Below are positions 1 through 917 of a DNA stretch of 917 nucleotides, one piece after another (positions within the stretch are counted from its first letter, which is position 1; each line of letters begins with the position of its first letter). The translations under genes and the position numbers were made by a program. The stretch is from the sequence record AF056279.1. One strand, written 5' to 3'. The notes beneath the pieces are model-generated. The model had not been told where the DNA came from, searched no databases, and saw only the letters and a list, made by a program, of their open reading frames with translations. Source of the DNA: a phage.

Positions 1-23
1 GCGTTAGCTGGCGTACAGGTCAA

Positions 24-37
24 TCTAGAGGATCCCC
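24..37. other. Polylinker-like string TCTAGAGGATCCCC (XbaI TCTAGA 24..29, BamHI GGATCC 30..35, then CC) overlapping the stop codon of the 25..786 CDS
   Basis: Exact 14-nt identity to the XbaI-BamHI-SmaI-half segment of the pUC18/19 and M13mp18 multiple cloning site (GTCGACTCTAGAGGATCCCCGGGTACC), recalled from memory. The adjacent CAGGTC at 16..21 also matches the neighbouring polylinker bases, but the SalI site is not intact (AA in place of GAC). On the other side the sequence diverges immediately after CCCC. Confidence 0.35.
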
Positions 38-786
38 TCTGACATTGCTTCATCATGCATATGTTTTTCCTCGTCAGTCATGAACTTATAAGGAATTGGC
101 ATACACTCGATTTTACAATAGGTTCTATACCAGTCTACAATATTCTCCGTGTTCATATCTTTACCAATGCCCATCATACCAAGATACATTCTAGCATATT
201 TTGGATTAGCACTCTGACCTGTTTTAAGGAAGAAATCTTTCTTCTTACCTTTCAGAGCTTCTATGAATGGTTTGATAGTGACGTTTGAACACTTCTTAAT
301 ATCTTCCCAAAACATCTCGTGCATCTTATGGAAGAATGCAGCTCGATCATTCGGTTTATCTTTGATATATTGTTCAACATGCTCAACTGTTACATCTTTA
401 ATAGACTCAAGATGATAATAGCGAACAAGAAGTAGTTTAGCTTCATACGCATCCGCATGACGTGGAGCACAATAATCTGGAGTTGAATGCAGAATAGCTT
501 TGATTCGCTCTTCTGTGTACTCTTTACCAGCACCTTCAATAGTTCCCCAGCTTTCGCTGAAAATATCAATAGTTGCACCTTGATCAAGCAAGTAATAACG
601 TAAAGTACTAGTATAGTTCCTGGATTCCAGTTCCCTGCGACGTGCGTATAATTGCTGTGCTAACTCCAGCCAACCTTCATCAATATTATATTGTTCAGAA
701 CCTGCGGAGAACCCACTAGTGGATTTATCAATAAAATAATAGATATTCTGAGCACCACGGTCGCGCCTGATTGCTTGGAAACGCAT
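25..786 (-). CDS. Hypothetical protein, 253 aa from first ATG (786..784) to TAG stop (27..25); family unassigned, possibly the C-terminal part of a helicase-like protein
   Basis: Longest ORF in the supplied six-frame track. A stop-free run this long is unlikely by chance in AT-rich DNA. Codon choice looks coding-like: Gly mostly GGT, Arg mostly CGT/CGC, and G is rare at third positions. The 5' boundary is uncertain: the frame is open upstream to 894, and no GGAGG/AGGA-like Shine-Dalgarno precedes the ATG (upstream mRNA-sense sequence ...AGTAATCAAGCGCCAAAC-ATG). The 3' end lies in a polylinker-like string. Confidence 0.75.
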   Translation of the reverse strand: MRFQAIRRDRGAQNIYYFIDKSTSGFSAGSEQYNIDEGWLELAQQLYARRRELESRNYTSTLRYYLLDQGATIDIFSESWGTIEGAGKEYTEERIKAILHSTPDYCAPRHADAYEAKLLLVRYYHLESIKDVTVEHVEQYIKDKPNDRAAFFHKMHEMFWEDIKKCSNVTIKPFIEALKGKKKDFFLKTGQSANPKYARMYLGMMGIGKDMNTENIVDWYRTYCKIECMPIPYKFMTDEEKHMHDEAMSEGIL

Positions 787-798
787 GTTTGGCGCTTG

Positions 799-816
799 AT
801 TACTGGTTCTAGTAAT
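799..816. repeat. Short inverted repeat ATTACT-N6-AGTAAT (6-bp arms, 6-nt spacer) in the leader region just upstream of the ATG at 786
   Basis: Plus strand 799..816 reads attactggttctagtaat and the two arms are exact reverse complements. The arms are AT-rich and no T-run follows, so it is not a typical intrinsic terminator. It could be a small operator or mRNA hairpin, or chance. Confidence 0.3.
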
Positions 817-818
817 AA

Positions 819-848
819 CAAATACGTTATCAAAGTAGTTAAAGTCAA
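819..848 (-). promoter_or_regulatory. Weak sigma70-like promoter candidate upstream of the 25..786 CDS: -35-like TTGACT (848..843), 18-nt spacer, poor -10 TATTTG (824..819)
   Basis: Read by eye on the minus strand. The -35 hexamer matches TTGACA at 5 of 6 positions, but the -10 matches TATAAT at only 3 of 6 and lacks the conserved final T. Position, roughly 35-65 nt upstream of the ATG, is plausible. Confidence 0.15.
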
Positions 849-857
849 CACCACTCG

Positions 858-917
858 TTACGGATGGGCTACATAATAAGCAATCAATTTGTTGTCAATT
901 AGACCTAGCAAAGAACG
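858..917 (-). CDS. Possible 3' end of an upstream gene running off the window edge: 19 codons (...RSLLGLIDNKLIAYYVAHP) plus TAA stop at 860..858; product unknown
   Basis: This is the only minus-strand frame open from the window edge, and it differs from the main CDS frame. It would leave a 71-nt gap (787..857) before the ATG at 786. Nineteen open codons are weak evidence on their own. Confidence 0.2.
   Translation of the reverse strand, partial: RSLLGLIDNKLIAYYVAHP

Follow-up and report, generated by a model that had tools for sequence, protein, structure and literature searches.

The minus-strand reading frame at the left end of this DNA raises the question of whether its stop codon belongs to a phage gene or to a cloning vector. 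The window, by which we mean the entire 917-nucleotide stretch that was analyzed, carries an ORF that extends over 25..786 when counted from its first ATG, with the frame open back to 894, and that ends in ...HDEAMSEGIL* with the TAG within an XbaI site as its stop codon. An earlier note on this DNA had placed the end of the coding sequence at this TAG and had recognized a 14-nucleotide piece of polylinker around it, and both observations held. The window begins with gcgttagctggcgtacaggtcaaTCTAGAGGATCCCCtctgacatt..., and the 14-mer, TCTAGAGGATCCCC, occupies 24..37 on the plus strand as its single occurrence when both strands were checked. It corresponds to the contiguous XbaI-BamHI-SmaI block of the polylinker, TCTAGAGGATCCCC(GGG), which is present and exact at this position. 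A similar match, with up to two mismatches tolerated, occurred in 0 of 200 dinucleotide-preserving shuffles of the window, and by arithmetic only about 7e-6 exact copies of the 14-mer would be expected by chance on both strands of 917 bases. The coordinates of all features discussed are collected in Table 1.

Table 1. Features of the 917-nucleotide window, from left to right.
Feature	Position	Strand	Remark
Polylinker upstream of XbaI (HindIII-SphI-PstI-SalI, pUC18/19 or M13mp18/19), probable, badly read	1..23	+	Alignment to pUC19
XbaI (24..29), BamHI (30..35), and half SmaI	24..36	+	Exact pUC/M13mp-type polylinker
Vector-encoded ORF tail, G-I-L and stop	25..36	-	In place of native LGARNDSEE-stop
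ORF end	CTC (L) 30..28, stop TAG 27..25	-	Inside XbaI site 24..29
ORF last codons	GAG (E) 39..37, GGG (G) 36..34, ATC (I) 33..31	-
Insert, 3' part of obp, residues 632-920 of 929 aa	37..902	-	99.8% identity to OR083247 57402..58268
In-frame TGA from one-base deletion (plus-strand A missing after 894)	895..897	-	Compared with BF23
Tail after the second AluI end	903..917		ACCTAGCAAAGAACG

Most of the window is phage DNA. A megablast search of the window against 50,697 phage records returned matches in 450 T5-like phages, 448 of which covered at least 80% of it, and the best 30 of the 450 all aligned from base 37 to 901 or 902. The top match was Escherichia phage BF23 (OR083247), in the gene obp, annotated as 'replication origin binding protein.' In the BF23 locus (L001), obp (BF23_00126, WLW40715.1) comprises 929 codons on the minus strand at 2471..5260, and window 37..902 corresponds to 2501..3367, a length of 867 bp in BF23, of which the window has 866. 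Within 37..902, the window departs from BF23 at only two points, a substitution at 204 and the loss of one base after 894. On this near identity, we take the source of the insert to be phage BF23 or a near-identical T5-like phage. Orthologues of obp occur across the T5 family, the AKFV33 record citing T5 YP_006936.1. Compared with BF23 obp, the window is without residues 1-631 and 921-929, and it has a foreign G-I-L-stop tail, the frameshifting deletion after 894, and Pro in place of Ala at 204. The Pfam family Herpes_ori_bp (PF02399) is found in the full BF23 protein at residues 389-533, outside the window, and a Pfam search with the window's 289-aa ORF returned no family.

The phage homology has a sharp limit on the left. 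A sensitive blastn search of bases 1..60 against all phages found 188 records; in the alignments listed, which came from 15 of the 188, every match started at base 37 and none extended to the left of it, and 0 of the 188 covered 80% of the query. In 437 phage records, the native 200 bp of BF23 runs uninterrupted through the breakpoint. With a slash at the breakpoint, the native DNA reads ...TTTCTAGCACCTAG/CTCTGACATTG..., whereas the window reads ...TCTAGAGGATCCC/CTCTGACATTG.... The native BF23 protein runs on as ...AMSE-LGARNDSEE*, and BF23 shares the ending ...ELGARNDSEE* residue for residue with five relatives (AKFV33, LmqsSP1, RUS_R2, 26175II, and poul149), which belong to Tequintavirus and Epseptimavirus and show DNA identity down to 81-82% over the 200-bp region. 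A tblastn search with the last 42 residues of the native protein returned 827 phage records, distant Vibrio phages included, and all 827 alignments pass the breakpoint at residue 33, given that each covers at least 80% of the query. The insert stops 30 bases before the end of obp, which amounts to 27 coding bases and the stop codon, and the window ends its protein in ...SEGIL*, without the intact native ELGARNDSEE-stop. Given that the homology starts at 37 and that the native C terminus differs, the residues G-I-L and the stop are vector-derived, with nine native residues missing. The earlier note had proposed this origin for the C-terminal residues and the stop, had suspected a longer native gene, and had raised the question of whether homologues run beyond ...MSEGIL; BF23 and the five relatives do, each with the same nine further residues. 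A natural coincidence, which it had also considered, is for practical purposes excluded, and no listed natural isolate carries bases 1..36 beside obp.

In native BF23, the conserved ...ARNDSEE codons are overlapped by a small hypothetical gene (77 aa, L001 2254..2487) whose start lies 17 nt ahead of the obp stop; the window does not contain this gene. Annotations of BF23 and of four of the five relatives show the overlap, and the poul149 record has no downstream gene annotated. The overlap may explain the strong DNA-level conservation of the last nine obp codons.

On the other side of the breakpoint, we compared the window with the pUC19 polylinker. The pUC19 string used had 111 nt, and several deposited plasmids matched its positions 15..74 and 1..56 at 100% identity, a stretch that includes the 14-mer. 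The pUC/M13mp18/19 polylinker continues with GGG after the 14-mer, and cutting at SmaI (CCC^GGG) leaves ...GGATCCCC. The polylinker match stops at the SmaI-cut base, 37, and the phage homology begins at 37, so that the two agree within one base, in keeping with the earlier proposal of an insert joined near the SmaI and BamHI sites. C37 itself is ambiguous: it may belong to the vector end, as its fourth C, or open the AluI insert. For a SmaI end ligated to an AluI end (CTCTG...), five Cs would be expected, whereas the run at 34..37 has four, and the missing C must reflect nibbling of the ends at the join or an undercalled homopolymer.

Farther to the left, the polylinker can be followed with decreasing clarity. 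A local alignment of bases 1..45 matched window 16..37 (CAGGTC-AATCTAGAGGATCCCC) to pUC19 CAGGTCGACTCTAGAGGATCCCC with one mismatch and one gap. The CAGGTC is exact at 16..21 and is followed by AA where the polylinker has GAC (GTC-AA versus the SalI site GTCGAC). In the polylinker, the PstI-SalI block (CTGCAGGTCGAC) lies 5' of XbaI with SphI and HindIII before it; the window reproduces the CAGGTC part of this block exactly and the remainder in garbled form. When 1..23 was aligned, with anchoring, to pUC19 upstream of XbaI, the match was weak, with a score of 9.0 that was reached by 96 of 5,000 shuffles, and the pUC13/M13mp11-type variant scored 8.5 (201 of 5,000 shuffles). Bases 1..15 resemble the HindIII-SphI-PstI region of pUC weakly (p of about 0.02-0.04). 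In pUC18, a read primed with M13 -20 begins with GCCAAGCTTGCATGCC..., and the window starts with GC.TTAGCT.G; the distance from the base after this primer to the SmaI cut is 41 bases, and the record has 37 from its start to the insert. An AGCT at 6..9 of the garbled leader ('TTAGCTGG') fits the core of a HindIII site (AAGCTT) and weakly supports 1..23 as miscalled vector. The earlier note had stated that both flanks of the 14-mer diverge from pUC. This is true of the right flank, where divergence is expected because the insert begins there, and does not hold for the left flank, since 16..37 aligns as described above. We interpret bases 1..23 as the beginning of a sequencing read with poor base calls. 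We infer a vector of the pUC18/19 or M13mp18/19 type, although, given the weak resemblance of bases 1..15 to pUC, it may be another vector with the same XbaI-BamHI-SmaI block.

The junction strings had no match in IMG/VR viral contigs, JGI metagenome contigs, or GTDB genome contigs, and the 253-aa ORF was not on record in an exact look-up in the assembly collection. Among the natural plasmids of PLSDB, which is not a vector database, the whole window had no match, and bases 1..45 found only a chance 21-nt match in a Rhizobium galE (E = 8).

Both limits of the phage homology fall on AluI cuts. BF23 has AGCT at L001 2499 and 3366, and cleavage at AG^CT falls between 2500 and 2501 and between 3367 and 3368, which are the two limits observed. 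With one AGCT per 168 bp in the locus, the chance that both ends match by accident is about 3.6e-5. The window retains five uncut internal AGCT sites (at 256, 340, 439, 496, and 549), unlike what a complete digest would give, so that an AluI digest, if there was one, must have been partial. The insert reads as a blunt fragment of such a partial digest. Libraries of blunt fragments from partial AluI (or HaeIII or RsaI) digests in SmaI-cut M13 or pUC vectors were a classical means of quasi-random shotgun cloning, and the window resembles them in its ends at AG^CT, its uncut internal sites, and the blunt vector site, with the difference that here the pattern is known from one clone alone. A sticky-end join of Sau3AI to BamHI, considered for the GATC at 32..35, was rejected: there is no native GATC at the breakpoint (CACCTAGCTCTG), and the nearest Sau3AI sites are elsewhere.

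At the right end, phage homology stops at 901-902 in the matches listed. Because it ends exactly at the second AluI cut, the step from 902 to 903 is probably the second vector-insert junction and more than the decay of a read. The 15 bases that follow showed no significant similarity to the BF23 continuation in a shuffle test, and none beyond shuffles to the KpnI-SacI-EcoRI side of pUC18/19. With the far side of pUC18 (GGGTACCGAGCTCGAATTC) they share ACC.AGC...GAA..CG, at a score within the shuffle range. They are probably the far side of the vector (KpnI-SacI-EcoRI) or a collapsed read end. The earlier note had remarked on neither this second junction nor the AluI nature of the insert.

The right end also carries the deletion, which lies 8 nt from the end of the insert, at about position 895 of the read, and changes the native ...LIDQQIDC... 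to ...SN*QQIDC.... It is absent from the relatives aligned to 902 in the matches listed, which span 867 bases compared to 866 in the window. We consider it probably an error of base calling late in a long read and not a real gene boundary. Given the garbled bases 1..23, the deletion after 894, and the tail at 903..917, the record most likely represents a single sequencing pass that was left untrimmed.

We therefore answer the question in favor of the vector and assign a probability of about 93% to the reading that the window is a laboratory clone, made of a blunt partial-AluI fragment of BF23 DNA in the SmaI-cut polylinker of a pUC18/19- or M13mp18/19-type vector. Partial AluI digestion (AG^CT) of BF23 DNA would have released a blunt fragment of 867 bp, which would then have been ligated into the SmaI site of the polylinker, SmaI being the enzyme that the position of the join points to. 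The read would begin with polylinker (1..36, of which about 23 bases at the start were miscalled), cross the insert, and end just beyond the second junction. Because the insert stops 30 bases short of the end of obp, the truncated frame would enter the polylinker, where it would be translated through GGG-ATC-CTC (G-I-L) to the TAG of the XbaI site. The arrangement is like that of an untrimmed pUC18/19 or M13mp18/19 read start of the kind flagged by UniVec or VecScreen, with XbaI-BamHI-half-SmaI, CAGGTC before it, and the insert at the SmaI cut. It differs from such a read start in that 1..15 is weakly similar, one C is lacking, GTC is followed by AA, and the far side is unrecognized in 903..917.

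The alternative that survives best, although we regard it as unlikely, is that the same type of construct was made deliberately, as an engineered subclone for expression, marker rescue, or mapping, and was deposited with its vector ends instead of arising as a shotgun read. The junction evidence is the same for both, and a single restriction fragment in a polylinker would suit subcloning equally well. However, the fragment lies within one gene, lacks the start and the last 9 codons, and retains five uncut AluI sites, which would be strange planning for a purpose-built construct and looks more like a library clone, and the frameshifting deletion together with the garbled ends resembles an unedited read. 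The frame also does not form a fusion of obp with lacZ-alpha, given that the XbaI TAG terminates it after three codons of polylinker. A deliberate subclone would leave the identity of the feature unchanged.

Considerably less probable is a chimera made in silico, in which a vector-contaminated read and phage sequence were brought together by an assembler or by manual editing and no ligation took place. Vector contamination often gives rise to chimeric contigs, and the lack of the junction in the viral, metagenome, and genome contig collections would fit such an origin. Yet the vector breaks off no more than one base from the SmaI cut, and on the phage side both ends coincide exactly with AluI cuts. 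Computational misjoins arise at shared repeats and not where enzymes cut, whereas here a single base (C37) is common to the two sides.

We give almost no weight to a natural T5-like variant whose obp truly ends in ...SEGIL* beside a coincidental or naturally acquired 14-mer: its only point is the poor pUC match of bases 1..15, and it is opposed by the lack of any listed phage alignment left of 37 or right of 902, the C terminus shared by BF23 and the five relatives with 827 of 827 matching records passing the breakpoint, the chance expectation of ~7e-6 for the 14-mer, the AluI cuts at both homology ends, and the in-frame TGA, which would inactivate obp, a predicted replication gene. A viable T5-like phage, recombined in the laboratory by design or by accident and with an obp that keeps a scar of polylinker at its 3' end, strikes us as hardly credible; if it existed, it would have an origin-binding/helicase protein without nine conserved C-terminal residues, and the ELGARNDSEE tail and the overlap with the downstream gene would be dispensable.

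Read as a cloned fragment, the window is an artefact of a well-known kind and holds no biological novelty. The insert is an ordinary BF23-type obp that adds nothing on phage replication, and the value of the finding is one of database hygiene only: masking as vector is advisable for bases 1..36 and probably for 903..917, the ending ...SEGIL* is not to be entered as the C terminus of a protein, and the TGA should not be taken as a gene boundary or a sign of a pseudogene. Unmasked vector codons can enter protein databases as false truncated variants.

Two further observations concern the origin of the insert and the public records. At 204, G (Pro, ...SANPKY...) occurs in the window and in every one of the five relatives examined, and OR083247 has C (Ala). 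By this comparison, the window would carry the family-typical base, and it is the published BF23 stock or assembly that differs there. This difference suggests that the source of the insert was a separate stock of BF23 or a very close relative. The earlier GenBank fragments of BF23 cover tail proteins, the receptor-binding protein and llp, A2-A3, and a tRNA region, and obp is described in none of those listed by the 2023 genome paper (PMC10644984); the window is apparently not among them. In PLSDB, pieces of the pUC polylinker that end near SmaI are present in several plasmids entered as 'natural,' for example CP045673 (1..56), MT108922 (61..111), and 13 'uncultured' records. Given that these pieces break near SmaI, they suggest that similar vector-insert junctions exist in other public records.
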